From: Nitrosopumilaceae archaeon
Lineage (GTDB): Archaea; Thermoproteota; Nitrososphaeria; Nitrososphaerales; Nitrosopumilaceae
NCBI GenBank assembly: GCA_965214835.1
Contig: CBDCCK010000002.1
Span: 96,001 to 160,000 of the forward strand
Direction of reading: 5' to 3'
Length of the DNA stretch: 64,000 bases
The notes under the pieces were generated by a model that did not search any database, was not told the origin of the DNA, and saw only the letters and a list, made by a program, of their open reading frames with translations. Shown here in pieces: positions 15,315 through 52,333 of this stretch (the first letter of the stretch is position 1; every line of letters begins with the position of its first letter). A program made the translations under genes and the position numbers.

Positions 15315-15379
15315 TTCCACACCTGCCTGCCTGTCAGCCCTTTCGGGTATTGCAGGGTTTGAAAACAGTTGCCAGGTCA
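15315..15379 (-). ncRNA. Unknown structured motif X, copy 2
   Basis: Same conserved blocks with a shorter apical hairpin (CCC-GAAA-GGG). Confidence 0.6.
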
Positions 15380-15410
15380 CTAAAAATGTTGGATGCGTGC
15401 AGCCCCGAGG

Positions 15411-15845: not shown

Positions 15846-15876
15846 CGAAAAAATGTTGGATGCGTTGCCCTTGATG

Positions 15877-16191
15877 TCAGTCCTTCTTCAGATACCCTGC
15901 GATTTCCCGCAGAACGGCGGTAATCTCGTCAAGCTTGTCAAGCTTGGTGTCAATCCGGTCAAACCGCTTGTGTATCTTGGAGACCTCGTCATGTGTAAGA
16001 AGCAGCATCGTAATCCCTACGATCGCAGGCATTATAAAGACTCCGTACACGGGCCACTCTCTTAGCAGCTCCAGCACGTCGGACTCCCCGCCAAACATGA
16101 GGAAGAATCCGAACAGAAGCATGCTTACAAATACGACTCCCATCGGTCTTCTGAAGAGGAGCTGTACCTTTGCAGTAACGTGTTTGTTCAT
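15877..16191 (-). CDS. Two-TM protein with LDKLD heptad tail (one repeat fewer)
   Basis: Nearly identical to 15411..15758. Confidence 0.75.
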   Translation of the reverse strand: MNKHVTAKVQLLFRRPMGVVFVSMLLFGFFLMFGGESDVLELLREWPVYGVFIMPAIVGITMLLLTHDEVSKIHKRFDRIDTKLDKLDEITAVLREIAGYLKKD

Positions 16192-16209: not shown

Positions 16210-16277
16210 CTCCCACACCTGCCTGCCTGTCAGCCTACAAAGTAGGTAATGCAGGATTTGGAGCCCTTGTCAGGTCA
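16210..16277 (-). ncRNA. Unknown structured motif X, copy 4
   Basis: Ends about 19 nt upstream of the ATG at 16191. Confidence 0.6.
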
Positions 16278-16312
16278 CTAAAAAATTTATGGTGTTTGAA
16301 GGAACAGGATTC

Positions 16313-16741: not shown

Positions 16742-16775
16742 TTTTTCTCCATTTGGCGTCTCACTCGCCGTGCAT

Positions 16776-16852
16776 TTCCCACACCGGCCTGCCTGTCAGC
16801 CCCGTGCCGCAATGGGACGGGATGATGCCGGTTTGGAATGGTTGGCAGGTCA
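16776..16852 (-). ncRNA. Unknown structured motif X, copy 5 (covarying)
   Basis: CCTGC/GCAGG becomes CCGGC/GCCGG and CTCC/GGAG becomes TTCC/GGAA, while the loop blocks are unchanged. Confidence 0.65.
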
Positions 16853-16883
16853 TAAAAAAAATAAAGGGGTGTTACGGCCTTTT

Positions 16884-17991: not shown

Positions 17992-18063
17992 CGTTGAGTG
18001 AAAGGAAGAAAAAGAATGGGTGGGGAGGACTTGAGGATCCTCCCGGATCGAGGAGCGAATGAC

Positions 18064-18192
18064 TCACCGGTCTGCCGGTACAGTACGTCCCAGGTTCCTG
18101 AGATAACATTCGTCCTTGAAATCTGCTATGGCTGCCAGCTCATCGGAGGTCTCAAAGTCCTCTGCTGCGCCTGTATCATAGATGTAATCCAT
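18064..18192 (-). CDS. 42-aa acidic micropeptide (MDYIY family), copy 1
   Basis: MDYIYDTGAAEDFETSDELAAIADFKDECYLRNLGRTVPADR; frame and length conserved across three full copies. Confidence 0.55.
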   Translation of the reverse strand: MDYIYDTGAAEDFETSDELAAIADFKDECYLRNLGRTVPADR

Positions 18193-18261
18193 GAGTGTAA
18201 TGTGGAAATTCTTGCAAAGTGTAAATTGTAAAAAGAAAAAAGGGGGTTGTGACTGCGGCCG

Positions 18262-18636
18262 CTAATGGAAGTTACACCACGTCCAGTACGAGCCCCAGTT
18301 CTCATCTTCCTGAACCCAGACTTTGTAACAATGGGGACACTTCACGTCAAACGGCGCCTCACGAGCCAATCGGAGAACCTCCCGGGTGCAATCCCAGAAA
18401 CGGCGCCATTTGGTTCTCAGGCTACAACCATAGCCATACCAGAGGCGCAGTTCGCAAAGGCGTTCTGCATGGCGCAGGGTACAACCGTGCAGACATGCAC
18501 ACGACTCAGGCCTGAAATTACGGTAGAGTTGATAGCAGACGCGCACCCACAGGTGTGAATAGATGCCTCTTTTTTTCACACGAGGGTATTTTGCCAGTGC
18601 TGTCTTTTCGTCGTAATAGATGCTTTTCGAAGTCAT
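18262..18636 (-). CDS. Cys-rich hypothetical protein
   Basis: Starts MTSKSIYY at the hammerhead; CPHC...CNFH end. Confidence 0.65.
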   Translation of the reverse strand: MTSKSIYYDEKTALAKYPRVKKRGIYSHLWVRVCYQLYRNFRPESCACLHGCTLRHAERLCELRLWYGYGCSLRTKWRRFWDCTREVLRLAREAPFDVKCPHCYKVWVQEDENWGSYWTWCNFH

Positions 18637-18707
18637 AGACGCCCAAAAATCTGGCGTTTCGGGCTTGCGTGAGCCCCTTGCGGGACTGGCCCAATCATCA
18701 GTATGAC
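18632..18707 (-). ncRNA. Type I hammerhead ribozyme overlapping a start codon
   Basis: GTCATA-CTGATGA-TT-GGGC..GCCC-GAAA-CGCC..GGCG-TC-TATGAC. Confidence 0.9.
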
Positions 18708-18790
18708 CGTTGAGTGAAAGTAAGAAGAAGGAAAAAAGAATGGGAGGGGAGGCCATGAGAGGGCCATCCCCGATCAAAGGTTCGAACGGC

Positions 18791-18919
18791 TCACCGGTAT
18801 ACCGGTACGGTACGCCCCAGGTTCCGGAGGTAGCATTCATCCTTGAAATCTGCTATGGCTGCCAGCTCATCGGACTTCTCAAGGTCCTCTGCTGCGCCTG
18901 TTTCATAGATGTAATCCAT
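18791..18919 (-). CDS. MDYIY micropeptide, copy 2
   Basis: MDYIYETGAAEDLEKSDELAAIADFKDECYLRNLGRTVPVYR. Confidence 0.55.
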   Translation of the reverse strand: MDYIYETGAAEDLEKSDELAAIADFKDECYLRNLGRTVPVYR

Positions 18920-18978
18920 GAGCGTAATGTGGAAATTCTTGTAAAGTGTAAATTGTAAAAAGAAAAAAAAAGGGGGGA

Positions 18979-19533
18979 TCAGTCTCTGCCGAAGAGACTG
19001 TTCCATTGTGCCAGGAGGCGACCAAAGACAGGCCACGAATACCCGTCGTCGTGACAAGGATGCGCGCCATACCTTCCAACGAAGAGATCGGCCCATACCT
19101 CGCTGGCAAAACTCTCACGATTCATGAGTCCATCGGCCATCTCCCGATGGCAGTGCCTCGTGAGCGCAGAGAGGTTCATGCCGTGTTTGATGGCGTGCCC
19201 TATCCACTCGGGATCGCCGGAGCGCGGCAGCAGGTTGGCCTCGTGATGCCCAAGCTCGTGGTAGAGTGTGTTCCTGACACACGCGCCGCAGTGCTGAATG
19301 CCGCAGATGGCAATCTCCATTGAGGAAGGGTCATAGTACCCGTAACAGTCAGGTCTCGAATCTTCCACGTAAAGGAGGCAGACGCCGCGCCTCAGGTACG
19401 ACGGTATGCGAAAATACTCCTCACGGATCATCTCGACTTCGTGGACGTACGGGCGCATCTCCGCGCAGACGGACACTGCCGTCTGTGGTTGCTCGCGGGG
19501 TCGGCTATTGAAGTGGTGAACAGATGTGTTCAT
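18979..19533 (-). CDS. Zincin-like HExxH metallopeptidase
   Basis: GYYDP...YHELGH...SEVWAD (gluzincin-type third ligand). Confidence 0.75.
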   Translation of the reverse strand: MNTSVHHFNSRPREQPQTAVSVCAEMRPYVHEVEMIREEYFRIPSYLRRGVCLLYVEDSRPDCYGYYDPSSMEIAICGIQHCGACVRNTLYHELGHHEANLLPRSGDPEWIGHAIKHGMNLSALTRHCHREMADGLMNRESFASEVWADLFVGRYGAHPCHDDGYSWPVFGRLLAQWNSLFGRD

Positions 19534-19601
19534 TGTAATGTGTAACATGGAAAAAATGGGGGATGGGATGCGACAAACAGCCGCATCCGGATGAGGGGAC
19601 T

Positions 19602-19691
19602 TTAGTCCCAGATTTCCCGGTCTTCGGGATCCTCTTCGAACTCGCGGATTATGCGAGGGTAAAAGGGTGTCTTTTTCTTTTTGGAATTCAT
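19602..19691 (-). CDS. Possible 29-aa micropeptide (MNSKKKK...)
   Basis: Short ORF followed by hairpins and a T-tract; identical copy at 21411..21500. Confidence 0.3.
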   Translation of the reverse strand: MNSKKKKTPFYPRIIREFEEDPEDREIWD

Positions 19692-19817
19692 TACTGAAAT
19701 TTCTGGAATCAGGAAATGCCAAAGTCCTCTGCTGCGCCTGTTTCATAGATGTAATCCATGAGCGTAATGTGGAAATTCTTGTAAAGTGTAAATTGTAAAA
19801 AGAAAAAAAAAGGGGGA

Positions 19818-20375
19818 TCAGTCTCTGCCGAAGAGACTGTTCCATTTGGGGAGCAGGCGCCTGTAGGTGTCCCACGAATAGTGGAAACAGCTCCATCTGG
19901 ATCCGTGCCTTCCAACGAAGAACTCTGCAAAGACTTCCCCTGCGAATGTGTGCGTGTCCATCTCGCCGCGCTCCATCTTCTGATGGCAGAACTCAGTGTA
20001 CCACGAAAGGCTCCTGCCAAACTCAAGGGATGCAGCAGTCCAGTCCGGGTGTGCCCAGAGCTTGTGCGTCTTGGAGCAGTGGTGCCCGAGCTCATGGTAG
20101 ATGAGAGACCTTACGCATCTGCGACAGTGCTGCAATCCACAGACGGTGATCGTCTGATCCGTCCAACAATAGAACCCTCCACCTTCCGGTCTGGGCCCTG
20201 CAATGTGCAGACAGCGGATACCGCGCCTGAGATCAGGGCGGACGCGAAAGTACTCCTTGCGGATTATTCTGACAGCATGCTCATGTACGAGCATTTCCTT
20301 GCTGACAGTGAACTTCGGCGTGTAGCGCTCCGGAGAGCGTCGGCATTTGAAGATGTTTGTAAACATGTTCACCAT
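19818..20375 (-). CDS. Zincin-like HExxH metallopeptidase (divergent paralogue)
   Basis: GFYCW...YHELGH...GEVFAEFF; ends WNSLFGRD like its paralogues. Confidence 0.75.
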   Translation of the reverse strand: MVNMFTNIFKCRRSPERYTPKFTVSKEMLVHEHAVRIIRKEYFRVRPDLRRGIRCLHIAGPRPEGGGFYCWTDQTITVCGLQHCRRCVRSLIYHELGHHCSKTHKLWAHPDWTAASLEFGRSLSWYTEFCHQKMERGEMDTHTFAGEVFAEFFVGRHGSRWSCFHYSWDTYRRLLPKWNSLFGRD

Positions 20376-20600
20376 AATGTAGAAAAATCGGGGTATCGTA
20401 GTGAGAGGTCTTGAAAAAACCTGTCACTCTGCGTTCTAGACTTTGGATTCGCGGAACCTGCGGCGGCCGGGACACTTCACACCAGCGCCGGTGCCACAGG
20501 GATTGTTGGAGGTTGTGATTCTGGAAAATCCTGAAAAACTGAAAGAAAAAGAATGGGTGGGGAGGACTTGAGGATCCTCCCGGATCGAGGAGCGAATGAC

Positions 20601-20729
20601 TCACCGGCTGGCTGGTACGGTACGTCCCAGGTTCCTGAGATAACATTCGTCCTTGAAATCTGCTATGGCTGCCAGCTCATCGGAGGTCTCAAAGTCCTCT
20701 GCTGCGCCTGTTTCATAGATGTAATCCAT
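20601..20729 (-). CDS. MDYIY micropeptide, copy 4 (copy 3 at 19709..19759 is truncated)
   Basis: MDYIYETGAAEDFETSDELAAIADFKDECYLRNLGRTVPASR. Confidence 0.55.
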   Translation of the reverse strand: MDYIYETGAAEDFETSDELAAIADFKDECYLRNLGRTVPASR

Positions 20730-20787
20730 GAGTGTAATGTGGAAATTCTTGTAAAGTGTAAATTGTAAAAAGAAAAAAAGGGGTGGA

Positions 20788-21342
20788 TCAGTCTCCGCCG
20801 AAGAGACTGTTCCATTGTGCCAGGAGGCGACCAAAGACAGGCCACGAATACCCGTCGTCGTGACAAGGATGCGCGCCATACCTTCCAACGAAGAGCTCGG
20901 CCCATACCTCGCTGGCAAAACTCTCACGATTCATGAGTCCATCGGCCATCTCCCGATGGCAGTGCCTCGTGAGCGCAGAGAGGTTCATGCCGTGTTTGAT
21001 GGCGTGCCCTATCCACTCGGGATCGCCGGAGCGCGGCAGCATGTTGGCCTCGTGATGCCCAAGCTCGTGGTAGAGTGTGTTCCTGACACACGCGCCGCAG
21101 TGCTGAATGCCGCAGATGGCAATCTCCATTGAGGAAGGGTCATAGTACCCGTAACAGTCAGGTCTCGAATCTTCCACGTAAAGGAGGCAGACGCCGCGCC
21201 TCAGGTACGACGGTGTGCGAAAATACTCCTCACGGATCATCTCGACTTCGTGGACGTACGGGCGCATCTCCGCGCAGACGGACACTGCCGTCTGTGGTTG
21301 CTCGCGGGGTCGGCTATTGAAGTGGTGAACAGATGTGTTCAT
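20788..21342 (-). CDS. Zincin-like HExxH metallopeptidase (near-identical to 18979..19533)
   Basis: Duplicated at a 1809-bp offset; YHELGH motif. Confidence 0.75.
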   Translation of the reverse strand: MNTSVHHFNSRPREQPQTAVSVCAEMRPYVHEVEMIREEYFRTPSYLRRGVCLLYVEDSRPDCYGYYDPSSMEIAICGIQHCGACVRNTLYHELGHHEANMLPRSGDPEWIGHAIKHGMNLSALTRHCHREMADGLMNRESFASEVWAELFVGRYGAHPCHDDGYSWPVFGRLLAQWNSLFGGD

Positions 21343-21577
21343 TGTAATGTGTAACATGGAAAAAATGGGGGATGGGATGCGACAAACAGCCGCATCCGGA
21401 TGAGGGGACTTTAGTCCCAGATTTCCCGGTCTTCGGGATCCTCTTCGAACTCGCGGATTATGCGAGGGTAAAAGGGTGTCTTTTTCTTTTTGGAATTCAT
21501 TACTGAAATTTCTGGAATCAGGAAATGCCAAAGTCGGCGGAGTTATATGGTGGGATAATTGTACAGGAAATGGTGAT

Positions 21578-23172
21578 GAGGGCTCAGACTGCTCCCTGTC
21601 TTCATTGCATCGCAGTGATGCTCAGAATGAATGGTGTCTCATCATCGCCCTCGTTTGTGTAGCAGAATAATGCGGGAATCTAATCGGCAAAGCAGGTTGG
21701 AGTTATATTACAGAATAATGATTCAGGAAATGGTGATGAGGGCTCAGACAACGCCAGATTCATCATGAATCAGACTGGGGGTGTCTCATCATCGCCCTCG
21801 TTTGTGTAGCAGAATAATGCGGGAATTTTCAAAGTCAGAATGGCTGGAGTTATATGGTGGAGTGTGGTACGAAACATGGTGATGAGGGCTCAGATGTCAC
21901 GGCTTTCTTCATAGCCACGACAGGCTCGGAGATTATTGCTGATCTCGGCCCTTTGTTCTTCATCATCGCCCTCGTTTGTGTAGCAGAATAATGCGGGAAT
22001 TTTCAAAGTCAGAATGGCTGGAGTTATATGGTGGAGTGTGGTACGAAACATGGTGATGAGGGCTCAGACAACGCCAGATTCATCATGAATCAGACTGTGT
22101 GTGTCTCATCATCGCCCTCGTTTGTGTAGCAGAATAATGCGGGAATTTTCAAAGTTGGAATGGCTGGAGTTATATGGTGGAGTGTGGTACGAAACATGGT
22201 GATGAGGGCTCAGACAACGCCAGATTCATCATGAATCAGACTGTTGGTGTCTCATCATCGCCCTCGTTTGTACAGCATAATTTGCAGAAGTTTCTGCTTC
22301 AAAGTTGGCTGGAGTTATATGGTGGAGTGTGGTACGAAACATGGTGATGAGGGCTCAGACTGATCTCTGTCGTCATTGCATCGCAGTGATGCTCAGTATG
22401 AATGGTGTCTCATCATCGCCCTCGTTTGTGTAGCGGAATAATGCGGGAATCTAATCGGCAAAGCAGGTTGGAGTTATATTACAGAATAATGATTCAGGAA
22501 ATGGTGATGAGGGCTCAGATAGGTAGCTGTCTTCATTCACGAAGTCAGAATAACAGGCTGTCATCATCGCCCTCGTCTGTGTAGCGGAACAATACGGGAA
22601 TCTCGGCGGCAAATCAGGTTGGAGTTATATGGTGGGATGATAATTCAGGAAATGGTGATGAGGGCTCAGACTGACTCGACCGTCATTGCATCACAATGAT
22701 GCTCCGGATGAATGGAACTCATCATCGCCCTTGTTTGTGTAGCGGAATAATACGAAAATCAAAAGTTAGAATGGCTGAAGTTATATGGTGGAGTGTGGTA
22801 CGAAACATGGTGATGAGGGCTCAGAATGCTAACTGTCTTCATTCGTGAAGTCAGTATAACAGGCTGTCATCATCGCCCTCGTTTGTGTAGCAGAATAATG
22901 CCGGAATGACCGGGTTGGAGTTATATTGCAGAATGATGATTCGGGAAATGGTGATGAGGGCTCAGACCTATAGCTGTCTTCATTCGTGAAGTCAGAATGA
23001 ATGGAACTCATCATCGCCCTCGTTTGTGTAGCAGAATAATGCGGGAATCTAATCGGCAAAGCAGGTTGGAGTTATATTGTGGAATGATAATTCAGGAAAT
23101 GGTGATGAGGGCTCAGATAGGTAGCTGTCTTCATTCGTGAAGTCAGAATGAATGGAACTCATCATCGCCCTC
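21578..23172 (-). ncRNA. Tandem array of 11 box C/D guide sRNAs
   Basis: Each unit reads GAGGGCG-ATGATGA(C)-guide-CTGA(D')-loop-ATGAAGA/ATGATGA/ATGACGR(C')-guide-CTGA(D)-GCCCTC. Units: 21578-21652, 21738-21799, 21884-21973, 22058-22119, 22204-22265, 22349-22423, 22509-22574, 22660-22732, 22815-22880, 22956-23021, 23107-23172. Confidence 0.9.
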
Positions 23173-25578: not shown

Positions 25579-26018
25579 CTGCCGCCCTCGGGGAATAATG
25601 CGGCATCCGGGCCTGAAACTGCAGGACACGGAACGTCAGGCAGCGCCTGTATCCGGGGCGCCAACCGGATCCACTGCAAGCTCAAAACCGGACTCTTCCA
25701 TGGACGCGGCGATCCTCTTTGAGGTATCCACGCAAAGCATGCACGTCTCGTCGGATATGACGCCGAGCCCCCCTGCGCGACCTTTTTCCATAGACCCGTG
25801 ACGATGGCACGTCATACGGCGGGGCCATCATATCGTCCACGTCGCGATCGCATTTCCGGCTACGGCGGTATCCTGCGCGCCGGGCGGTTCCGGTGCCTAC
25901 GAGCCAGGCCATGTTGCAGATACCCTGAACTCCTTTAGTGTAACAGGTCGGGCTCTGGAAGTTCAGGCATGAATTTTACCACCAAAGAGGCCTCCGCAGA
26001 TGTAATTCGTGCCTAAAA

Positions 26019-27218
26019 TCACAAGTCACTTCCAAAGTCCGAGCTGTTACCCTTTAGTTCCTTTTTCGAGTTTCGCTTTCTGATTGCCGTTGTCGTGACG
26101 TCGCAAAAACCGTAATGCGACATCATGTCTGCATAAATCCTCTCGGTCGGAACTACGGTCCCGTAGAACGTGGAGTTTCCTATTATATAGTGGGCCCTGG
26201 CACCCGGCCTGAGTACGCGTCGCACGGACTCAAAATGCCTCGACATGTCGTCGCAGTACTTGCCCACGTAGTTTGACAGGACCTTCCCGCTGCGGTCGTT
26301 TCCTGCAATGCTGCGCAGTATCTTCCCGACATATTCAGGGATCCACGACCTTCCACCAGTCCAGCCTGCAAGCCTGCTGGTGGCAATTCCCCACGTCCCG
26401 CCGATGGTACGCCAGTCCATCTCGCCTGCATCGCGCCCGCTTGAAAGGTGGCCAAGCCAGTACATGAACGGACGCAGTTCGCGTATGTATGACATTCTGT
26501 TGGCGTACGGCGGGGACGTAATTATGACGTCAAACATGGATGCGGCGTCCGAAAACTCGCGGGAATCCCCGAGCATGACGCTTACCTTCCCGTATACCGG
26601 CCGTCCAGCGCCGGCGATGACAAAGTCCAGGTTACGCAGAAAGACATCCCTCATCCCGGCACTGGACTGCACGCTGTTCGGCGCGTCCTTGAACGACATG
26701 GACTGGTGGCCGAAATCGGCGCAGGAGAGCTGGATCAGCGTCCTGCAGAATGCGACGTAAAGCAGGTCAGACACGCCGCCCCCGGTCCGCATTATCCCGG
26801 TCTTGAGGCGCCTGATGAACATCTCGGCGTCACATGACCACCACCGGCGCATGTTGTGGATCGGGGGGGACGGCTCTGGCTGTACATGTGGCCCGTCTTC
26901 CAGGATGAGACGTCCAGCCCTTTTGGCGGATCTTATCGTGTCTGCACCGTAATGCCCCGTCTTTGCTCTGGCCAGCCACACCAGGAACGGGTTTACGTCT
27001 ATCGTGGTCGCATCATGACCCCGGTCTGCCGCACATAGTGCAGTAGTACCCACGCCGCAGAACGGATCAAGTATCAGACTGCCTGCAGGACACCGTGATA
27101 TGATCTCGTCGACGATCCTGACAGAATATGCCGGGGTAAGACGCAGCCATCCGTGTCTGCCTGCATCCGTGTTGAATTTGTAGGTATAGTCGCTTCTCTG
27201 CTCTAGCGCAGCCATCAC
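26019..27218 (-). CDS. N4C DNA methyltransferase (alpha arrangement)
   Basis: DPFCGVGTT precedes TSPPY. Confidence 0.85.
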   Translation of the reverse strand: MMAALEQRSDYTYKFNTDAGRHGWLRLTPAYSVRIVDEIISRCPAGSLILDPFCGVGTTALCAADRGHDATTIDVNPFLVWLARAKTGHYGADTIRSAKRAGRLILEDGPHVQPEPSPPIHNMRRWWSCDAEMFIRRLKTGIMRTGGGVSDLLYVAFCRTLIQLSCADFGHQSMSFKDAPNSVQSSAGMRDVFLRNLDFVIAGAGRPVYGKVSVMLGDSREFSDAASMFDVIITSPPYANRMSYIRELRPFMYWLGHLSSGRDAGEMDWRTIGGTWGIATSRLAGWTGGRSWIPEYVGKILRSIAGNDRSGKVLSNYVGKYCDDMSRHFESVRRVLRPGARAHYIIGNSTFYGTVVPTERIYADMMSHYGFCDVTTTAIRKRNSKKELKGNSSDFGSDL

Positions 27219-34076: not shown

Positions 34077-35261
34077 ATGTGTCATGCTGATCGTGATTAT
34101 ATGGGCGTGGATGCATGGCATGAGAGGATGGCAGAATGGCTGGGGATGAATCCTGCCCATAGGCCAAACCGCCTCGTCTGCGTGCTTGAGGACGGCGGCG
34201 GGGATGACGGTATACATGAGGACGCCAGGCGTCTGGGGGTCATGGCGTGTGATGTAGGTGACGAGAGATGGATGATGGCGCCGTCCTCACCTGCCGTCAT
34301 AACGGGCACGCATGATGAGATCTTCTCTAGGGCCCTCAACAGGGGATACGGGGTGCGAGCAGACATGTGGAACATGCAGTTCGGACTGCTCAACAATGAC
34401 TGCCTGTGGGTTGACGGGACGGACAGCGGGCTGCACGCAGCCCTGTCTGATCTGCGCAGCAGGCTTCCCACGTTTCGCACGCCGGAAACTGTAGATCCGT
34501 CACAGTGTCATACCCAAGACATTCCGATTCACGGGCTGTTCGGCACCGGTAACATGTCTGACATAGCCAGGTTCATGCCAAAAGACATGATAGATCAGGA
34601 CGGGTCAATCATTTTAGGTGATATATCTGACATAGCCAGGTTCATGCGGAGACCGGTGGACGGCTGGGAAGGGATACGACCGCCGGCAGGAAGACATCTT
34701 GGAACGCAATGGATTACCCTTGCCGAACACCTCTCCATGACAGAGCGTCTGATATCAGACGTGTGTCCTGCAGGCGTGCCGGACATTGGCTCTCTGAGGA
34801 CTGCTGCCAGGTACCACGACTACGGCAAGGCGCATCCGGAGTTTCAGCGGTGGCTCTTGCAGGGGCTCCCACAAAACGAACATGAGTCAAGGGCGGCCAC
34901 GGCATGGGCAAAGAGAAGACCAAAGGCGGCACTTGGCAGGATAGATTACAGTCACGAGATTGCAGGAGCGGGTGCTCTTCTGCGGCTCCACCCAGGGGAT
35001 CATCTGGCCGCATACCTCGTCATGTCGCACCACGGCAGGTTCAGATCAGACATACCGGATACCACAGGCAGTCTTCCAAGAACGGATCTGGGTGACGGGA
35101 TGGTGGCCGACGAGGTATCATTTATGGTGACATCAGAAGGATGGAGAAAGACATTCGGTGGACTCTACAGGAGGTACGGACCGTTCCTTTTGTCATATTA
35201 CGAGGCGCTGTTGCGCACAGCAGACATGATTGCAAGTGATTCGGATGAGCGCAGACAGTGA
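34077..35261 (+). CDS. cas3: Internally deleted type I-G (I-U) Cas3: helicase remnant plus C-terminal HD nuclease
   Basis: PAVITGT..SRALNRGYG..GLLNND is the I-G Cas3 signature but DEAH is lost; HD domain EHL..HDYGK..HE..HHG..LRTAD is intact. Confidence 0.75.
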   Translation: MCHADRDYMGVDAWHERMAEWLGMNPAHRPNRLVCVLEDGGGDDGIHEDARRLGVMACDVGDERWMMAPSSPAVITGTHDEIFSRALNRGYGVRADMWNMQFGLLNNDCLWVDGTDSGLHAALSDLRSRLPTFRTPETVDPSQCHTQDIPIHGLFGTGNMSDIARFMPKDMIDQDGSIILGDISDIARFMRRPVDGWEGIRPPAGRHLGTQWITLAEHLSMTERLISDVCPAGVPDIGSLRTAARYHDYGKAHPEFQRWLLQGLPQNEHESRAATAWAKRRPKAALGRIDYSHEIAGAGALLRLHPGDHLAAYLVMSHHGRFRSDIPDTTGSLPRTDLGDGMVADEVSFMVTSEGWRKTFGGLYRRYGPFLLSYYEALLRTADMIASDSDERRQ

Positions 35262-39788: not shown

Positions 39789-39820
39789 AGATGTCATACC
39801 AATGTCGGTGTCTGATATTA

Positions 39821-40367
39821 GCTTCAATGGGACCACGACATTATCGTCGCGGAAATGGATGATGGCGCCGTCTTCGCCTGCCGTCATAACGGGCTTCAAT
39901 GGGGCCGCAACTTTATCGTCGCGGAAAGATATAATGCGAGATTTAACACAGGAACTCGGAAACTTGCTTCAATGGGGCCGCAACTTTATCGTCGCGGAAA
40001 GGTCGGAACCATGGGACGGATTGGCGGGACGGGAGGACGCTTCAATGGGGCCGCAACTTTATCGTCGCGGAAAGGTCGGAACCATGGGACGGATTGGCGG
40101 GACGGGAGGACGCTTCAATGGGGCCGCGACATTACCGTCGCGGAAATTCGTGAGGGCCCTGGAAATGATGATGCGTATATCACAGCTTCAATGGGGCCGC
40201 GACATTACCGTCGCGGAAATAGCTTTCTGCATATGCCGTTACATGCATCGTCATTACGCTTCAATGGGGCCGCGACATTACCGTCGCGGAAATTGGGTAA
40301 TGACGTGACTACCATATCCCTGCAGGGCAACGCTTCAATGGGGCCGCGACATTACCGTCGCGGAAAT
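39821..40367 (-). CRISPR. Type I-G-like CRISPR array, 8 repeats and 7 spacers
   Basis: 36-bp repeat GCTTCAATGGGGCCGCGACATTACCGTCGCGGAAAT (two variants) at 39821, 39893, 39966, 40039, 40112, 40185, 40258, 40332; spacers 36-38 bp, spacers 3 and 4 identical; minus orientation ends in ATTGAAGC. Confidence 0.97.
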
Positions 40368-40593
40368 ACTGCAATGCCGACAGGTTCGGCCATTGCCTGT
40401 GCGTGACAGGCATCTTTTTTGTACAGCCCTTGCGTTTTTCGCACCACACATGCCGCGATGGCATGCGTCCTCACACTCACATATAATACATTTTCAAGCG
40501 CCTCCTCACAGCGGTGGTACCCAGGATCCCTCGCATGCCACGCCTGCCGGTGACACCAGAGACATACGTGACGATCTGACGCATATGCAGGAT

Positions 40594-42026: not shown

Positions 42027-42425
42027 TCACCGTATCTCGACTACCTTGGTCCTGACTATGGTGCTGCCGTCGGTCCCCGACGCATCCACTATGAGCGTTA
42101 TATGCGTGGCCCCTTCTGCGCCGTCCACTATTCCAGATATCAGTCCGGACGATCTTCCTGCGGGCAGGGAGGCGCCGGGCTGGTCCACTGCCAGATCAGA
42201 CGGGGTGCTGACCGACAGGCCGGATATGTCCACGTTGCCTATGTTGTGCAGCGAGTAGCTCAGCAGCACGTCGCCGGACTGGGACAGGCGCCTGGCCTCG
42301 GCGCTCACCTGCAGGTCAAGCCGGTCAATGTCAAACTGCCCGGAGCTGAATGCAACTGCCAGCACGACGGGAACGATGACGCCGGCCGCAAGAAAAATCG
42401 CCAGGTATTCAGAAGAGAGGTTCAT
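42027..42425 (-). CDS. Pilin-like/surface protein
   Basis: Short N-terminus with Glu, a hydrophobic helix, then NIGNVDI beta-sandwich. Confidence 0.55.
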   Translation of the reverse strand: MNLSSEYLAIFLAAGVIVPVVLAVAFSSGQFDIDRLDLQVSAEARRLSQSGDVLLSYSLHNIGNVDISGLSVSTPSDLAVDQPGASLPAGRSSGLISGIVDGAEGATHITLIVDASGTDGSTIVRTKVVEIR

Positions 42426-42928
42426 TTCCTTACGTACCTTTTCAGCCTGGAGACGGCGGCCAGTATCTCGTCCATGCTACGGCCCCCGACTACTGCGTGA
42501 TACCCGTACGCCTTGACGTCGCAGCCGCCGATGCGGATCTGGACGCGCGCAAACCTCTCGTTGGATCTTATGTATCCCGGGGCGCCGCGCAGCCTGTCTA
42601 GGTCCAGCATCCTGCCGTCAAAGGAGACGTGCGTCACCACGTACCGCACGGTGAACTTTTCGACGGTCCTGATCTTCATGCCGAGCCTTTTGAGCAGCGA
42701 GACGAACGCCCTTGCCGCGCCGACTGCCGCCTTCTCGGAGGTGGAGCCGACCGACGTCACCCTTCCGGAATCGTACAGGTATATCATGGCGCCGCCGGAC
42801 GGCACGTACAGGGCAGGAAGGCCGTTGGGGCGGTACTGGGCATCGCGGACGCTGCGGACTATGGCCTCCGGGTCGTGCCCGGATATCATGCCGGCGGCAA
42901 TTACGTTGTCCACCTTTACCATCATCAT
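42422..42928 (-). CDS. tbp: Divergent TATA-box-binding protein
   Basis: VKVDNVIA, YRPNGLPALY, YDSGRVTSVGSTSE and a second repeat (VRYVVT..LDLDRL..ERFA..VVGGRS); ATGA overlap with the upstream gene. Confidence 0.7.
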   Translation of the reverse strand: MMMVKVDNVIAAGMISGHDPEAIVRSVRDAQYRPNGLPALYVPSGGAMIYLYDSGRVTSVGSTSEKAAVGAARAFVSLLKRLGMKIRTVEKFTVRYVVTHVSFDGRMLDLDRLRGAPGYIRSNERFARVQIRIGGCDVKAYGYHAVVGGRSMDEILAAVSRLKRYVRK

Positions 42929-43329
42929 TTCCCGGGATTCTCCATCCTCCTCTTGACGATGATCGACCTGACGGCCTCTATGTTGTTGGCAACGGCGCAC
43001 AGGTGGATCATGCCGACAAAGAACGGCAGGAACGCGTCGGCCATTATGACGTACCATCCGAGGCAGACCGCTATGCCTGCCGAGAATATCACCATGATTG
43101 CATGGTACGGGCCCATGTGGCGGCGGAGGATGCCGAACATGGCGTTCTTCTCGTACCGTTCAAAGTCGCGCACCCGTATGGTGGTAAAGGCGTCAGCCGC
43201 AAAGCAGACCGTGTAAAACGACATGGCCACTGCCATCCCGTGGCCGCCAAGCAGCGTGTGCGCAAACACCCCGGTCACAAACGAGAAGGAAAGCGTTATG
43301 ATTCCGATAAAAAGGGGGATGAGGTTCAT
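42925..43329 (-). CDS. Membrane protein
   Basis: Four hydrophobic segments; EKN motif. Confidence 0.6.
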   Translation of the reverse strand: MNLIPLFIGIITLSFSFVTGVFAHTLLGGHGMAVAMSFYTVCFAADAFTTIRVRDFERYEKNAMFGILRRHMGPYHAIMVIFSAGIAVCLGWYVIMADAFLPFFVGMIHLCAVANNIEAVRSIIVKRRMENPGK

Positions 43330-43712: not shown

Positions 43713-46709
43713 TTAAACCCTAGATTGACTGTCTTCCCTCTTTTTTCCCATCCTGTACAGGTGCGCCCTGCCGCCCTTCCTCATGCGTATGGCATACCCC
43801 ATATCGGCTATCTGGCCTGCGATATAGTCGACCTCGTCGCGCTTTGAGGGATCGTTCCTGTTGGATTCCCACATCTGCAGGAGCCGCTGGCAGTGCAGCC
43901 GCTCGGCGTCTGCCTGCGGGCGGTCCCCGTCACCGTCGTCCTCCTTTGCTACAGCCGCTGCTGCTGCTTCTGCGTCATGCGGCCCGTCCTCGCAGTCCGG
44001 AGCCGGAAGCGCCGGAATCCTTTCCTGCGCGGCATCTGCTGCAGTGGTGGCGTCGTTGCCGTCATTATCACCGTCGGCATCGACATCAGCTGCATCCGTT
44101 GTGGCATCTGCAAATGTCACCGGTCCGGCGGATTCTTCTGCGGTATCCGGAGTGCCGTGGGGGATATGAGAACCGGACGGGGTCGCCGCCTCCGCTGCAG
44201 GCTGCTGCCCGGAGCCCTCATTCGCGACACCGCCGCCATCATCTGCGGTGTCGCCGGCATCCGCAGGCCGCCGTCCCGCCTTCAGGTGCTCATACCATCC
44301 GGCCTTGTTGTACGTGTCAACCCTGTCAGTGTCACGACCGCTGGCGACGGCCCCGTCCCTGGCAGCTGTATGGAGGGGGACCGGATCATCATCGTTCTGG
44401 CCGCCACCGTCCGCGTCTCCGCCGCCGGCATCAGCAGGGGGCGACACGCTGCCGCGTCCCCTGTACAGCACGTCCATGTCCTCGGGCCCGAGATCGCCGG
44501 ACTTGTCGGGGAGCAGCGGCCTGACTCCCGGCAGCGACCAGACGACATACAGCGACGGATCCTGCACGCGCCTGCCGTCCGCATCTCCGCCCCGGCCGGT
44601 GATGCCGCTCCTTTCCAGCCTGCCTTCCAGCCCCTGCAGCGACGCGATGACGTCTGCCTCGTCAAACTGCCATACTGAGTCGCAGACGAACCGCTGGGTG
44701 GCAGTCCCGCCTGCGCCCGAGAGCACCTCCATGATGCGGGCCTCACAGGCCGACATTGATCTTATGTTCTCGGATTTCGTATCAGTCAGGTGTGTCCTGT
44801 CCATTACCGTGAGCCGGTACTTGTCGCGCGAGACGCCGTTCTGCTTCATTGTATCGTGCATCCTCTCGGCCGTTGCCGCATCAAAGACGACAAACCAGAC
44901 TGAGTGGCCCAGCGCAGACGACTTTTGCCAGTTTACATACACCTGCTCCCAGTGCTTGCCTGGCCCCGTCTCGACCTCGACTGCCGTGATATCATCAGAC
45001 CACTCCGACGGGTTGAACAGTACGTCTTTGCGGCCGTCCCTGTCCCTGACGGGCTTGGGCGAGTATATCACGAGGTCTGCCTGCTTGGCCGCCCCCCTCC
45101 CGAGATCGGGAACGCAGTACCTCCCGTTGTTGACGTTGATCTCCATTATGGCAAATATGGCAGACAGGTGGAGGTCCCCTCCGGCCCTGCGGCCTGCGGC
45201 CGACCTCGAGAACAGGTTGTGCATGGCAGACTTTGTTATGGTGTATCTTGACTCGAACTTTTCGTCGCCGTCATCGCTTACCGTGTCGTGCTGGGAGACG
45301 TACCCGTTTGTGGCAATCAGCGTGTCGTGCAGCGCCGAGGAGACGTGCCGGGCGTCAGTCGCGTACCTGCGCAGCATGGCATCCGTTATCTCCTTTTTTG
45401 TCATGTCTCGGCTTTCTGTGCGCAGCAGGTTGAGTATCCCGAACTCCAGCGGCGTCAACTGCACGTCTGCGCCCCCGCCGCTCTGCGTGTAGTATTTGTC
45501 AAGGGAGACGAACTTGCCCAGCCGCATGACGCTGTGCCGCGAGGCCTCCTCGGAGCGGTCAGGTATCTCCATGTGGCGCGTCTTTGCCACCGCCTTTACC
45601 GGATTCGTGCCCCCCGACCAGAACGAAAAGTGGTGGAACGGCAGCTGCGTCTGCCGCTCGGGCTTTATCGGCAGTATGGACTTGAGCGAGGCGGCAGTCG
45701 TCGCGTCGCACCTGAAACAGGCGATTGCGCGGCACAGCGTCGGCAGCTCGGCTGCAAACTCGCGCTCTATGGCAGACGTTGACTGGGTGGCAATGGTCGC
45801 CTTGATGCCGTACTTGCGGACGGTATTGAGCAGCTCCCTGATCATGGGCTCTGAGAACATCTGCACCTCGTCCAGGTACAGGTTAAACGGCGCAAACCCC
45901 CCGCCGGGCTGGCGCTGTCTCTTGAGGTACGCGGTATAGAACAGGTGAAGAAACACGTTTCCCAGAAACTTTGTCATGTCGTTTGTCACCCCGCCAAAGT
46001 CCAGCACCACGTACATTCCCCGGTTCAGTATGTCCTCAAACGTTATGGAGGAGCGGCGCGTGTTGAACATCGCATCAAGCTCCGGGACGGTAAGCATCTT
46101 GTTGAGCTTGTTGAAGATGACGCCGCCTGCCTCCTTTGGATACTGCTCCCAGTATACCCTGGTGAAAAAGTCGCGGGCCTGCCGGTTCTGTATCTGTCCG
46201 ACGAACCCCTCGGAGAACTCCTTGTCCGTAAGAAGGCGGATCATGGCGCCAAGCGTGTCTGACTGCGTCCCGATTACGGCAAGTGCGCCGTTTCTGGCGC
46301 ACGTCTCCACGCGGGCCCCCCACGAGTCCGAGAACGCCTTTGCCAGGCATTCTGTGAACGTCAGCGAGACCATTCCCGCCTCGTGGGGATCGTCTATCTG
46401 CAGCGGGTTGAACCTTAGCGTCTTGTCAAGCTTCTTGATCGAGGAGAGGCTGACGTACACTATCCGGTCGTACTGCTCTGGCGGTATCAGCGAGAGGACC
46501 TCGCGGGACAGCTCCGAGTGGTTCTCTGCAAGCAGAAAGCCCCTTCCGGCCTTGATATCCTGCAGGATGAGCAGCCTCAGGACGCTTGACTTGCCGGAGC
46601 CTATCTCGCCGAGTATCAGCATGTTCTGCCGGGCCCTGTACGGCATCGTGAGGACCTTGCGGCCTGCCAGGTATCCGATTACCGAGTGATCGTGCGGGTT
46701 GACCGACAT
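43713..46709 (-). CDS. VirD4/TraD-like coupling ATPase with wHTH and PD-(D/E)xK-like C-terminal extension
   Basis: GEIGSGKS, FNPL, LYLDEVQ, RKYG..ATQ; then ADLVIY..AVEVETG. Confidence 0.8.
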   Translation of the reverse strand: MSVNPHDHSVIGYLAGRKVLTMPYRARQNMLILGEIGSGKSSVLRLLILQDIKAGRGFLLAENHSELSREVLSLIPPEQYDRIVYVSLSSIKKLDKTLRFNPLQIDDPHEAGMVSLTFTECLAKAFSDSWGARVETCARNGALAVIGTQSDTLGAMIRLLTDKEFSEGFVGQIQNRQARDFFTRVYWEQYPKEAGGVIFNKLNKMLTVPELDAMFNTRRSSITFEDILNRGMYVVLDFGGVTNDMTKFLGNVFLHLFYTAYLKRQRQPGGGFAPFNLYLDEVQMFSEPMIRELLNTVRKYGIKATIATQSTSAIEREFAAELPTLCRAIACFRCDATTAASLKSILPIKPERQTQLPFHHFSFWSGGTNPVKAVAKTRHMEIPDRSEEASRHSVMRLGKFVSLDKYYTQSGGGADVQLTPLEFGILNLLRTESRDMTKKEITDAMLRRYATDARHVSSALHDTLIATNGYVSQHDTVSDDGDEKFESRYTITKSAMHNLFSRSAAGRRAGGDLHLSAIFAIMEINVNNGRYCVPDLGRGAAKQADLVIYSPKPVRDRDGRKDVLFNPSEWSDDITAVEVETGPGKHWEQVYVNWQKSSALGHSVWFVVFDAATAERMHDTMKQNGVSRDKYRLTVMDRTHLTDTKSENIRSMSACEARIMEVLSGAGGTATQRFVCDSVWQFDEADVIASLQGLEGRLERSGITGRGGDADGRRVQDPSLYVVWSLPGVRPLLPDKSGDLGPEDMDVLYRGRGSVSPPADAGGGDADGGGQNDDDPVPLHTAARDGAVASGRDTDRVDTYNKAGWYEHLKAGRRPADAGDTADDGGGVANEGSGQQPAAEAATPSGSHIPHGTPDTAEESAGPVTFADATTDAADVDADGDNDGNDATTAADAAQERIPALPAPDCEDGPHDAEAAAAAVAKEDDGDGDRPQADAERLHCQRLLQMWESNRNDPSKRDEVDYIAGQIADMGYAIRMRKGGRAHLYRMGKKREDSQSRV

Positions 46710-46721
46710 CGGCCGGGCCCC

Positions 46722-48563
46722 TCACCTCGGCCTGAACAGCTCCAGCTGCTCCTGGTCGGGAAGCACGTCGACCGGGACCACGGAGTTGCCAAAGCGCACG
46801 AGCGCCTGCCCGCGCCGCATCCGCATCAGCCAGTTGCTCATCTCGCCAGACAGCACAAAGTGCTCGTTGAGGGCGCGCGACGTGGCCTCGGACTGGCGCA
46901 GAAACATCACGGTGTCCGAGTTGACCAGGACGTTGCGGGCCGCCTCGTTTGCTGTCATGTCCTCGATGTTCTGCGTTGCCATGAGCATGTTGATGTTGTA
47001 CTTTCTTCCTCGGCGGGAGAGGTGCTGTATATAGTCTCCCAGCGGCCCGTGCTGGAGGAGCATCCACACCTCGTCGAGCATGAACAGCTTGGGGACTGTC
47101 TTTGACATCATCAGCGAGCGGCCAAGCGCGTACGACAGAGCTATCTGGGTTATCAGGCGGTGGACCGTCCCGCCCGCGGAGCCCACGTTCTTGAGGGAGA
47201 GTATGACGCGCTTTGTGTCCGGCGCCATGCCCCGGAAAAAGTCCTCGTACGGGTGGTGGCACAGCATCCTGAACTGGCCGAGCACCTGCCTGTCCTCGGG
47301 CTCCGTGTGCTTTTCCACCGCATCCACAAATCTGAAAAAGCTGCGCTCCTCCATCGGCATGTTCGACATGTCGGTGGCCGCCATGTTCGCGGGCATCCTC
47401 TTTTCCTCGGGTATGAGCAGCGCGTCGCACAGCGTCTCGGAGGCCGCAAAGGCGTCGGGCACCATCCGGAATAAATCGAGGCCCATCTGCTTGCCCGTCG
47501 AATAGTCCAGGTACGTAAAGCCCATCGAGTCGCCCAGCGCGCGGTACTCGGACTCGGGGTCTATCCCGAATATGAACGCCTCCGGATACATCCGGTCAAA
47601 GGCGTGTATTATCATCATTGCAAGCGTCGTCTTGCCGGATCCTGACAGCGCCGCAAGCACGGTGTTGCGGTTTATGCGGTTGTTGATGTTCCACCGGAAC
47701 GGGTTGCCGGTTACCGTATTGACTCCGAGCAGTATGCCGCCGTCCTCGTAGAGCTCCGACGTCGAGAACGGGACGAGCGCCGCAAAGGTCTCCGTTATGG
47801 CAAGCATCTGCTGGCCCTGCTCCCCTGCAAGCATCTGCGACTGGACGTGGCGCGCAGTCTCCACCCCGGGTACCCCGCGCATGTCTGCCTCGAATACGCG
47901 GGCGCGCTCCCTCAGCTTCTGGTAGTCAAGGGCAAACACCAGCGGTATTATCCGCATCGTATACAGCGACGTCTGGTTTCCGGTTATCATCTCCTTGATT
48001 GCCCGCGCGCTTGCGGCCACGTCGACGCCGCTTGCCGACGAGTCCGTGCTTGAGGAGGCCATGTGGCTTGCAACAACGGAATGCCGCTTTTCGGGTGGGA
48101 TCGGGTTCACGAACATCCTGACGGCATCGGCCTTGGAGTATATGCCGTATATCCACCCTGGGGGCAGCTCGTCGGCAAGCATCCCGATGGTGTACGCCTT
48201 GCAGTATATCCCCGACTTTAGCACGGTACAGTCGGTGTGCTCCCTCTCGACGTCCCATCGGCGGACCTCCGCCGGGCCCGACGATATCGGGGCGACGATA
48301 TGTTCTGCCTCCTTTTCTGCGGTTGTCAGCATGACAGTATCCATCGGGCACCTGCGGACCGTCTTGTTGAATGACAGCTCCTCATAGTCGCGTATGACGT
48401 CCACCGTGAACGGCTCGCGCAGCCTTGAGAGCACGCCGGTATAGTTTGACACCAGGACGTCGCGCTCTGAAACGTCCGATACGGTGCTCTCCGGGTTTGA
48501 GAACATGATGTTTATCGGGCTCAGCCTGAATGCCCTGGGCTTGCCGCGCGTCCTTTTTGGCAT
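46722..48563 (-). CDS. VirB4-like conjugative ATPase
   Basis: GILLGVN, LSGSGKT, IDPESEY, LDEVW, RRGRKY..ATQ. Confidence 0.88.
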   Translation of the reverse strand: MPKRTRGKPRAFRLSPINIMFSNPESTVSDVSERDVLVSNYTGVLSRLREPFTVDVIRDYEELSFNKTVRRCPMDTVMLTTAEKEAEHIVAPISSGPAEVRRWDVEREHTDCTVLKSGIYCKAYTIGMLADELPPGWIYGIYSKADAVRMFVNPIPPEKRHSVVASHMASSSTDSSASGVDVAASARAIKEMITGNQTSLYTMRIIPLVFALDYQKLRERARVFEADMRGVPGVETARHVQSQMLAGEQGQQMLAITETFAALVPFSTSELYEDGGILLGVNTVTGNPFRWNINNRINRNTVLAALSGSGKTTLAMMIIHAFDRMYPEAFIFGIDPESEYRALGDSMGFTYLDYSTGKQMGLDLFRMVPDAFAASETLCDALLIPEEKRMPANMAATDMSNMPMEERSFFRFVDAVEKHTEPEDRQVLGQFRMLCHHPYEDFFRGMAPDTKRVILSLKNVGSAGGTVHRLITQIALSYALGRSLMMSKTVPKLFMLDEVWMLLQHGPLGDYIQHLSRRGRKYNINMLMATQNIEDMTANEAARNVLVNSDTVMFLRQSEATSRALNEHFVLSGEMSNWLMRMRRGQALVRFGNSVVPVDVLPDQEQLELFRPR

Positions 48564-52019: not shown

Positions 52020-52333
52020 AAGTGGGGGGAGGCGGCTCCGCGCTGTTGTAACCGGGACACCGGCATGTCCGTTACGATACACGGTACTGCGTCCGGCGGT
52101 ATTGCCGTATGCATCTACCGGCACACCGCTGCCGCCGTCCCACTCTGGGTGTGCCTCCCTGGCCGCCTTTTTTTCTGTCCGTTTTTTCGTGTCCGGCATT
52201 ATGAGCATGTTTGGAGGGCGCAGGTTATAAGGATAAAATCGCGAAGGTGCCCCGACCTGGAGGATTGCGCGTTACCGGTGTGATTACTGACTCTGGAAGT
52301 TCAGGCATGGGTTTTGTTACTGATTGTAAGTTA

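Follow-up and report, generated by a model that had tools for sequence, protein, structure and literature searches.

The window analysed here, a 64,000-nt stretch of a Nitrosopumilaceae genome (C2:96001-160000, C2 being contig CBDCCK010000002.1), carries at 21570-23172 on its minus strand a tandem array of 11 genes for box C/D small RNAs (sRNAs) with 22 guide slots. The reading that we favour, at a probability of roughly 85%, is that 11 canonical archaeal box C/D genes for 2'-O-methylation guides stand here head to tail in a variable island, with ten slots complementary to ribosomal RNA (rRNA). Guide architecture, rRNA duplexes in the expected register and three partner proteins encoded by the host together lead us to infer that the RNAs are made, assembled and methylating.

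The host family consists of ammonia oxidisers generally regarded as mesophilic, and C/D guide RNA genes are viewed as dispersed housekeeping genes that reach their highest numbers in hyperthermophiles. In this genome nearly all recognisable C/D sRNA genes sit in the single 11-unit array, whose neighbours are genes of the partition, conjugation and phage types; a second species of the genus has a diverged sister array, also linked to a partition gene, which is homologous to that in the window. The predicted rRNA targets fall in P-site helix 31, in the helix 70/71 region of domain IV and at the catalytic A2451. To what was first noted from the sequence alone the analysis adds the third of these targets, a candidate target in transfer RNA (tRNA) for aspartate for one guide first taken as an orphan, and the setting itself: a mobile-looking island together with a sister array.

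Architecture of the array

The array was delimited by reading the sequence and by regular-expression searches. Its units repeat with a period of about 146-151 nt, the leader sequences between them being repeated too, and are numbered in minus-strand order from U1 to U11. The 5' part of a unit reads GGGC-G-ATGATGA (box C), a spacer of 11-13 nt, CTGA or a variant (box D') and a loop; the 3' part continues with box C' (ATGATGA, ATGAAGA or ATGACG), a spacer of 11-12 nt, CTGA (box D), GCCC, the tail TCATCACCAT and a short T-run. Six base pairs between the ends (GAGGGC...GCCCTC) make up the terminal stem. All 11 units have ATGATGA as box C close to the 5' end and CTGA as box D close to the 3' end. 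Box D' is CTGA in nine of the 11 and degenerate in U4 (CCGG or CGGA) and U9 (CCGA). The C-to-D' spacer measures 12 nt in seven units, 13 nt in U6 and U11, 11 nt in U9 and 11-12 nt in U4 (depending on how D' is read), and the C'-to-D spacer 11-12 nt in ten units, U9 having 12 additional bases between C' and the guide. Seven units have a D'-C' loop of 3-7 nt; U4, U6 and U11 have a hairpin of about 15 nt there, and U9 a longer insert. Compact units are about 58-62 nt and all units span 58-86 nt. The leaders form two subtypes and hold AT-rich, TATA-like elements. Against the Rfam family RF00095 (snoPyro_CD; gathering score 45), U10 scored 45.7 bits, U8 40.7 and U7 39.8, and the other eight units were unreported. 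By their boxes, spacers, terminal stem and guide complementarity, the units are C/D sRNAs.

The units are as follows (SSU and LSU, small- and large-subunit rRNA; "orphan", no target assigned; targets are predicted):

Whole array: 21570-23172, minus strand; 11 box C/D sRNA genes with repeated leaders, holding 11 of the 12 matches of lineage model R1 (see below) in this genome
U1: 23109-23170, minus strand; D' guide GTTCCATTCATT, 11 bp with LSU 2073-2083, target A2076 (E. coli A1969); D guide CAGCTACCTAT, orphan
U2: 22958-23019, minus strand; D' guide as in U1 (LSU A2076); D guide CAGCTATAGGT, orphan
U3: 22817-22878, minus strand; D' guide CAGCCTGTTATA, 10 bp with LSU 2551-2560, target A2554 (E. 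coli A2451); D guide CAGTTAGCATT, orphan
U4: 22662-22730, minus strand; D' guide GTTCCATTCAT(C), 11 bp with LSU, target A2076 or A2077 depending on the reading of the degenerate D' box (CCGG or CGGA); loop hairpin; D guide GGTCGAGTCAGT, orphan
U5: 22511-22572, minus strand; D' guide CAGCCTGTTATT, 10 Watson-Crick pairs and one G-U pair with LSU, target A2554; D guide as in U1
U6: 22351-22421, minus strand; 13-nt D' spacer GACACCATTCATA, only 8 bp, with LSU 2073-2080; D guide CAGAGATCAGT, orphan
U7: 22206-22263, minus strand; D guide ATCTGGCGTTGT, 10 bp with SSU 906-915, target C909 (E. coli C970); D' guide GACACCAACAGT, orphan
U8: 22060-22117, minus strand; D guide as in U7 (SSU C909); D' guide GACACACACAGT, orphan
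U9: 21886-21971, minus strand; long, with a degenerate D' half; D guide AAGCCGTGACAT, 10 bp with tRNA-Asp(GUC) U33-U42
U10: 21740-21797, minus strand; D guide as in U7 (SSU C909); D' guide GACACCCCCAGT, orphan
U11: 21580-21650, minus strand; 13-nt D' spacer GACACCATTCATT, 8 bp with LSU 2073-2080; D guide CAGGGAGCAGT, weak SSU match

Two details of the scaffold are recorded for their own sake. The tail CTCATCACCAT, which follows the terminal stem in all units (for example at window 21570-21579), is complementary to a C-box-like string; it is kept as GCCCTCATC in dispersed sRNAs of this genome and as GCCCATCATAAC in the related genome G004, and may be a processing or termination signal. U10 and U8 are 98% identical over 86 nt (21730-21815 and 22050-22135; in U7 the segment is 22196-22281), both differences lying centrally in the D' guide, at positions 5-7 counted from its box, where U7 varies too.

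Predicted ribosomal RNA targets

The 22 slots, which hold 18 unique guides, were scanned against the host's own SSU and LSU rRNA, and a duplex had to cover the fifth base upstream of the box. E. coli numbers come from a MAFFT alignment with MG1655 rrsH and rrlH. The genome (3.22 Mb in two contigs, 52.6% G+C) has one rRNA operon. Ten of the 22 slots are complementary to it, in three guide families (three slots at SSU C909, five at LSU A2076 and two at LSU A2554); the duplex is 10-11 bp in eight slots and 8 bp in two further ones.

D guide ATCTGGCGTTGT (U7, U8, U10): 10 bp with SSU 906-915; C909, E. coli C970, helix 31
D' guide GTTCCATTCAT(T) (U1, U2, U4): 11 bp with LSU 2073-2083; A2076, E. coli A1969, helix 70/71 region
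D' guide GACACCATTCAT(A/T) (U6, U11): 8 bp with LSU 2073-2080; A2076, E. coli A1969
D' guide CAGCCTGTTAT(A/T) (U3, U5): 10 bp with LSU 2551-2560; A2554, E. coli A2451, peptidyl-transferase centre

At least ten contiguous Watson-Crick pairs that include the fifth position are formed by 5 of the 18 unique guides, and at least 11 by 2 of the 18. Shuffling the guides 2000 times gave means of 0.18 (at least 10 bp) and 0.024 (at least 11 bp), and not one of the 2000 trials attained the observed counts. The antisense rRNA control matched none of the 18 guides. Random genome segments of equal length, drawn 500 times, averaged 0.15, and no draw got to five. The five strong guides represent three independent families, for which our own Poisson estimate from the chance mean is about 1e-3. 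The rRNA matches are beyond chance. Genome-wide, box-flanked spacers with at least 9 nt of rRNA complementarity numbered 21 in sense (seven of them in the array) versus 12 in the antisense control; outside the array, 14 sense versus 12 antisense matches amount to background, and the array holds every rRNA-directed guide found in this genome.

Much of this had been foreseen in the first-pass annotation, made from the sequence alone. It had assigned ATCTGGCGTTGT to the D slot of three units, and exactly three (U7, U8 and U10) carry it there. It had also described five D' guides with a shared core, and five do contain a stretch complementary to ATGAATGG, with one complementary to AAC (U1, U2, U4) or TGTC (U6, U11) after it. 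The rRNA strings that it named occur in the host's own genes (GAGTCAACGCC at SSU 902, CAACGCCAGA at SSU 906 and GCATGAATGG at LSU 2071), and the fifth-base positions SSU C909 and LSU A2076 align with the targets it predicted, C970 and A1969. The comparison with shuffled guides that it proposed comes out on the side of real matches, by the counts just given. The A1969 site stands for U1, U2 and U4 (11 bp) and is weak for U6 and U11 (8 bp), whose D' guides look like weak or decayed versions of the A1969 guide.

The array RNAs would then direct ribose methylation at SSU C909 and LSU A2076. Each unit, having its own AT-rich leader and short T-run tail, would probably be transcribed or processed individually, and the leaders suggest that every unit has its own promoter. 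The RNA would fold through the 6-bp terminal stem and the C/D and C'/D' kink-turns and be loaded by the host's single set of L7Ae, Nop5 and fibrillarin, after which fibrillarin would methylate the ribose of the target nucleotide facing the fifth guide base upstream of D or D'. The host encodes one of each, all above the Pfam cut-offs: Nop5 (C2:361373-362029), the adjoining fibrillarin (C2:360409-361068) and L7Ae (C2:1297221-1297493).

The third target is the difficult one. The D' guides of U3 and U5 place the peptidyl-transferase adenine opposite the fifth guide base, and we take yeast A2820 to be the equivalent of E. coli A2451. The 2'-OH of A2451 is given as the most critical group for peptide-bond formation in the discussion of it in PMC2919715, and forced small nucleolar RNA (snoRNA) methylation of yeast A2820, called there the "catalytic adenine", yielded no transformants according to the passage of PMC5025663 that treats it (with Liu and Fournier 2004 cited there). 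A natural A2451 guide is unexpected, since the same modification, forced in yeast, is described in that passage as not tolerated. The array guide resembles the engineered yeast one of PMC5025663, as outlined there, in the nucleotide that its fifth position faces; unlike it, the U3/U5 guide is natural, exists in two copies and is unchanged in the part of the variant in sequencing run X5 that covers U3. Given these statements, the U3/U5 D' guide may not work as a methylation guide, or may do so only in part: it may be inactive or partially active in vivo, act as a folding chaperone, or be deliberately inhibitory or protective. According to the sections on modification in PMC7994747 and PMC4644070, archaeal methylation hotspots include helices 68-71 and the area around the peptidyl-transferase centre, and helices 68, 69 and 71 belong to the subunit interface.

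Orphan guides and candidate tRNA targets

Eleven slots have no assigned target: the D guides of U1 (shared by U5), U2, U3, U4, U6 and U11, and the D' guides of U7, U8, U9 and U10. Almost every unit would thus consist of one rRNA guide and one orphan guide. A scoring set of 11 sequences (the ten distinct unassigned guides and the U9 D guide) has its best imperfect rRNA complementarity at the level of shuffles, with a mean of 8.18 versus 8.19 and 56% of 300 shuffles at least equal. No guide forms a duplex of at least 9 Watson-Crick pairs with 5S rRNA, RNase P RNA or signal recognition particle (SRP) RNA, and none matches the pre-rRNA spacers (1393 nt) over at least 8 bp. Exact matches of at least 11 nt in the whole genome, on both strands, number 0-7 per guide, with about 3 expected by chance on our own estimate, and none of the seven contexts inspected was C/D sRNA-like. 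With exact matches near chance level, targets in mRNA cannot be called.

The first-pass annotation had left all the remaining guides as orphans, a view that holds where rRNA is concerned with two amendments: the full scan adds a third rRNA target, LSU A2554 (A2451), to the two named there, and one of its orphans, AAGCCGTGACAT, is a probable tRNA-Asp guide. The comparison with chromosomal C/D sRNAs that it had proposed is what bears on the latter. AAGCCGTGACAT, the D guide of U9, recurs unchanged as the D guide of a dispersed sRNA elsewhere in the chromosome (C2:1121379-1121467), of which U9 is a paralogue; it forms 10 bp with the anticodon arm, U33-U42, of tRNA-Asp(GUC) (C2:1337904), and its core recurs in the orthologous sRNA of G059, a genome of a different genus. 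In the tRNA scan 1 of the 18 guides reached at least 10 bp, a count that shuffles equalled in 12% of 2000 trials. The candidate is supported by the conservation in paralogue and orthologue, and AAGCCGTGACAT is probably not an orphan. By the fifth-position rule its target would be C36.

Outside the array only three or four C/D sRNAs were found, and these are tRNA-directed. Each of three dispersed C/D sRNAs forms at least 10 bp with one tRNA anticodon arm: besides the tRNA-Asp case, C2:1620632-1620699 has 10 bp with that of tRNA-Ala(UGC), and C2:1108956-1109015 pairs over 12 contiguous positions (11 Watson-Crick and one G-U) with a class-II tRNA that has a CAA anticodon loop, the fifth-position nucleotide being C34. 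A C34-type tRNA target of this kind is known in Pyrococcus, according to the relevant part of PMC7994747. For the Asp- and Ala-matching dispersed sRNAs the fifth-position rule leads to position 36, which is unusual.

Four further candidates were set aside. The U8 D' guide matches a "tRNA-Thr(tgt)" at C2:87939 in 11 of 12 positions; the predicted tRNA has a poor ARAGORN fold and the true tRNA-Thr(UGU) lies elsewhere. The 11-nt D guide of U6 (22351-22421) is identical, not complementary, to positions 54-64 of SRP RNA (C2:1104539-1104850), probably by coincidence. The last six bases of the U1 and U2 D guides are reverse complements (ACCTAT and ATAGGT); targeting of two DNA strands was considered, and the pairing is compatible with chance given the number of comparisons. 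Finally, the 9 Watson-Crick pairs and one G-U pair of the U11 D guide CAGGGAGCAGT with SSU 1324-1333 were judged, by our own estimate, to be at chance level.

Related arrays and their changes

Counting this genome (G000), arrays occur in three of five genus genomes, the other two being G002 and G004. G002 has the first two units (U1 and U2) at 98% identity, on a contig end. It differs from G000 at 3 of 207 aligned nt, all in the orphan D guides of these two units; in U1 the lineage of G002 and run X5 has two base differences, both within the D guide. Run X5, from a different study, reproduces the G002 variant and adds changes only in loops, in the U4 D' box (one base) and in the weak U11 D' guide, where two bases are changed and one of the changes lengthens the LSU pairing to 9 bp. 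U10 is identical in the run X5 contigs. In all, G002 and run X5 keep every rRNA-matching guide that they cover (U1, U2, U3, U4 and U10), and all five of their guide substitutions are in non-matching or weak guides. Such a concentration of lineage changes in orphan guides offers a handle on how new guides arise.

G004, of the same genus, has a diverged array of seven units (C1:1450208-1451782). In its first unit the A1969-site guide stands in the D slot, not D', and forms 10 bp with G004's own LSU rRNA; another of its units forms 10 bp near E. coli positions 748-757. The array is linked to a ParM-like homologue of the gene beside the array in the window (30% identity, E 1e-31), to transposases, and to PIN and Fic genes. 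Over 16 aligned units from the two genomes, 99% of the 96 terminal-stem cells are paired, and two stem pairs are changed on both sides between the arrays, which as a single lineage split is weak as covariation.

These comparisons bear on the idea that one or two sRNA genes were recently duplicated in tandem and have been drifting since, the orphan guides being debris and most units non-functional. U7, U8 and U10 do share 94-98% identity over 86 nt, the D' box has degenerated in U4 and U9, and the A1969 guides of U6 and U11 are weakened to 8 bp. Drift of this kind would not be expected to leave all 11 units with intact C and D boxes and terminal stems, to keep the stem paired by compensatory changes relative to G004, or to retain the A1969 guide through its move from D' to D; and the substitutions that separate G000 from G002 and run X5, avoiding rRNA-matching guides and scaffold, are unlike an even, neutral spread. 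We consider a decaying amplification improbable.

The wider distribution was surveyed with R1, a lineage model built from these array scaffolds and so biased toward them, its counts being lower bounds for other C/D sRNAs. Among 101 family genomes it matched 12 times in G000, seven in G004, twice in G002, four times in G019 (three clustered, on one contig), three times in G115 and twice in G059; four genomes had one match and 91 none, so that 6 of 101 had more than one. Among 101 order genomes only G000 and G004 had more than one (2 of 101). R1 found no match in the same-genus genomes G001 (98% complete) and G003 (96% complete). Patterns joining guide and box were run over 121 family genomes: the SSU guide was found in G000 and G080 only, the A2451 guide in G000 only, and the A1969 guide in G000 and G002 only, G004 being missed because its C' box differs. 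In G080 the SSU guide lies between a C box and a D box, with no recognisable second half. The 18-nt tail motif gave two matches in viral contigs, both in an unrelated context, and nine in genome contigs (eight bacterial, one in G002); the full-unit pattern gave none in metagenome contigs. U6/U11 and U9 have dispersed chromosomal paralogues.

Comparison with known guide RNA systems

The array shares with archaeal box C/D sRNAs (the Pyrococcus sR family, RF00095) the C, D', C' and D boxes, 12-nt guides and a terminal stem, and likewise compact units of about 58-62 nt and perfect rRNA duplexes of 10-11 bp in the fifth-position register. One functional and one orphan guide per sRNA have been described in other archaea, orphan second guides being common in the accounts given in PMC7994747 and PMC4644070. 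Unlike described archaeal C/D genes, those in the window form a regular 11-gene array with repeated leaders, are surrounded by mobile-element genes and include all the rRNA-directed guides found; their targets are redundant (three, five and two copies per site) and some have a hairpin in the D'-C' loop. A literature search found no paper on Nitrosopumilaceae C/D sRNAs, on C/D arrays in mobile elements or on a natural A2451 guide.

In plants, snoRNA genes form polycistronic clusters. Archaeal C/D sRNA genes in clusters of two or three were reported by Tripp et al. (2017), as summarised in PMC7994747. As in the archaeal and plant clusters, the guide RNA genes in the window are neighbours, presumably co-expressed or processed from adjacent units; unlike the two- and three-gene archaeal clusters, they comprise 11 near-identical scaffolds at a fixed period, with a seven-unit relative in G004. 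Mobile features of C/D sRNA genes are described as still awaiting discovery in the relevant parts of the literature cited here; the present locus offers a concrete candidate.

TIGR arrays lie mostly in mobile elements, have box C/D-like motifs flanking two spacers and are linked to C/D small nucleolar ribonucleoproteins through a Nop domain; in the description given in PMC12045711, the units have edge and loop repeats of 8-12 nt, spacers of about 9 nt and 36-nt RNAs. The array in the window resembles TIGR-Tas in its tandem, dual-spacer guide RNAs with C/D-like motifs in a mobile-looking setting, and one could suppose that it serves a Nop-domain Tas effector in targeting DNA, the orphan guides being the real spacers: many guides have no host target, and substitutions are concentrated in just those orphans. 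The dimensions are nevertheless those of another system, with units of 58-86 nt, a period of 146-151 nt, spacers of 11-13 nt (mostly 12), kink-turn boxes and a 6-bp stem, all of which differ from TIGR as outlined in PMC12045711, and ten guide slots match rRNA far above chance. At Pfam-level sensitivity, no Nop match appears among the window open reading frames (ORFs) scanned, 38 against Pfam and 10 against PHROGs, and no Nop-domain gene lies near the array, the sole Pfam Nop gene being that of host Nop5, which adjoins fibrillarin some 240 kb from the array. The array is not a TIGR array as that source defines it, and a TIGR-like function is highly improbable.

The island and the origin of the array

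A ParM-like, actin-like partition protein (ALP/ParM) is encoded about 380 nt beyond U1 and is homologous to a PHROG partition family. Downstream of U11 are two phage-type metalloprotease-like ORFs (18979-19896 and 20788-21357), VirB4/TraG-like ATPases lie at 43713-48563, and the window also encodes a staphylococcal-nuclease-like endonuclease, several DNA methylases and an Eco57I-like restriction-modification gene; many of its ORFs have no family assignment. Its DNA is barely conserved in the other genus genomes (G001-G004). Judged by these neighbouring genes, the array would lie in a plasmid- or virus-like, mobile-looking island. No integrase was found among the 38 Pfam-scanned ORFs of the window and no flanking attachment-repeat pair is evident; a tRNA-Arg gene at 52333-52419 is a candidate border landmark only.

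Alternatively, the host's own rRNA-methylation guides may have been amplified in place to form a housekeeping cluster, with mobile-looking neighbours by coincidence. The RNAs would use host machinery (one Nop5, one fibrillarin, one L7Ae), their targets fall within the methylation hotspots that the modification sections of PMC7994747 and PMC4644070 give for other archaea, arrays are present in three of the five genus genomes, U9 and U6/U11 have paralogues dispersed in the chromosome, and the window yielded neither integrase nor attachment sites. A housekeeping locus would, however, sit oddly with the R1 blanks in G001 and G003 and the scarcity of genomes with more than one match (6 of 101 in the family, 2 of 101 in the order), and with three rRNA guides that, together with their boxes, occur almost nowhere else in the 121 family genomes. 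The flanks (ParM-like protein, phage-type metalloproteases, DNA methylases, VirB4/TraG-like ATPases), the poor conservation of the window in same-genus relatives, and the link of the G004 array to a homologous ParM-like gene and to transposases also speak against coincidence. We regard a plain housekeeping cluster as possible, though doubtful.

A bolder proposal is that a plasmid-like element carries the array as cargo and, by means of the host's own machinery, alters how the host ribosome is modified, with fast-evolving second guides aimed at RNAs foreign to the host genome, for instance those of competing viruses or plasmids. We think this rather unlikely. If it were true, the A2451 guide could be an RNA-guided brake or poison on translation or, by analogy with ribosome-protecting protein ribose methylases, a shield against a drug that binds at the peptidyl-transferase centre, and the array would rank as the first C/D guide cassette to be both mobile and diversifying, and as a functional bridge from housekeeping C/D sRNAs to TIGR-type arrays.

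Several observations weigh against the reading favoured here, that of canonical methylation guides in a variable island. U4 and U9 have degenerate D' boxes, and of the five guides for the A1969 site two form no more than 8 bp. The tRNA-Asp match of U9 is not significant when taken alone, and tRNA C36 is not, to our knowledge, a known site of ribose methylation. The mobile context is drawn from neighbouring genes, with neither integrase nor attachment repeats, and the R1 census is biased toward the array scaffold. An A2451 guide is also at odds with a harmless role, given what PMC2919715 and PMC5025663 state, in the passages cited above, about the 2'-OH of A2451.

Other features of the window

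A micro-ORF of 29 amino acids (MNSKKKKTPFYPRIIREFEEDPEDREIWD) lies on the minus strand at 21411-21500, about 80 nt downstream of U11, and an identical copy lies 1.8 kb off at 19602-19691 (minus strand). In G004 a homologous micro-ORF directly follows that genome's own array (L030, about 15874-15963, plus strand), which suggests that array and peptide form a conserved module. Segmental duplications of 160-300 nt with 79-98% identity, within window 18006-21066, account for the two metalloprotease-like paralogues.

A structured-looking repeat of about 75 nt (CCCACACCTGCCTGCCTGTCAGCC ... CAGGTCACTAAAAA) occurs three times on the plus strand, at 15315-15386, 16213-16286 and 16773-16862, and is present near the G004 array and in G001 too; it may represent a further small RNA or an element of terminator type. 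At 25940-26050 lies an element of about 110 nt that has dozens of dispersed copies in G002 (73-95% identity) and resembles a miniature mobile repeat. The window also holds a small CRISPR array at 39819-40379 (eight repeats with a 73-nt period, one of which matches Rfam CRISPR-DR16) and a Cas3-HD-like ORF at 34077-35261. An extra TATA-binding-protein-like ORF (42422-43057, minus strand; Pfam TBP, E 3.5e-7) adjoins the VirB4/TraG-like ATPases.

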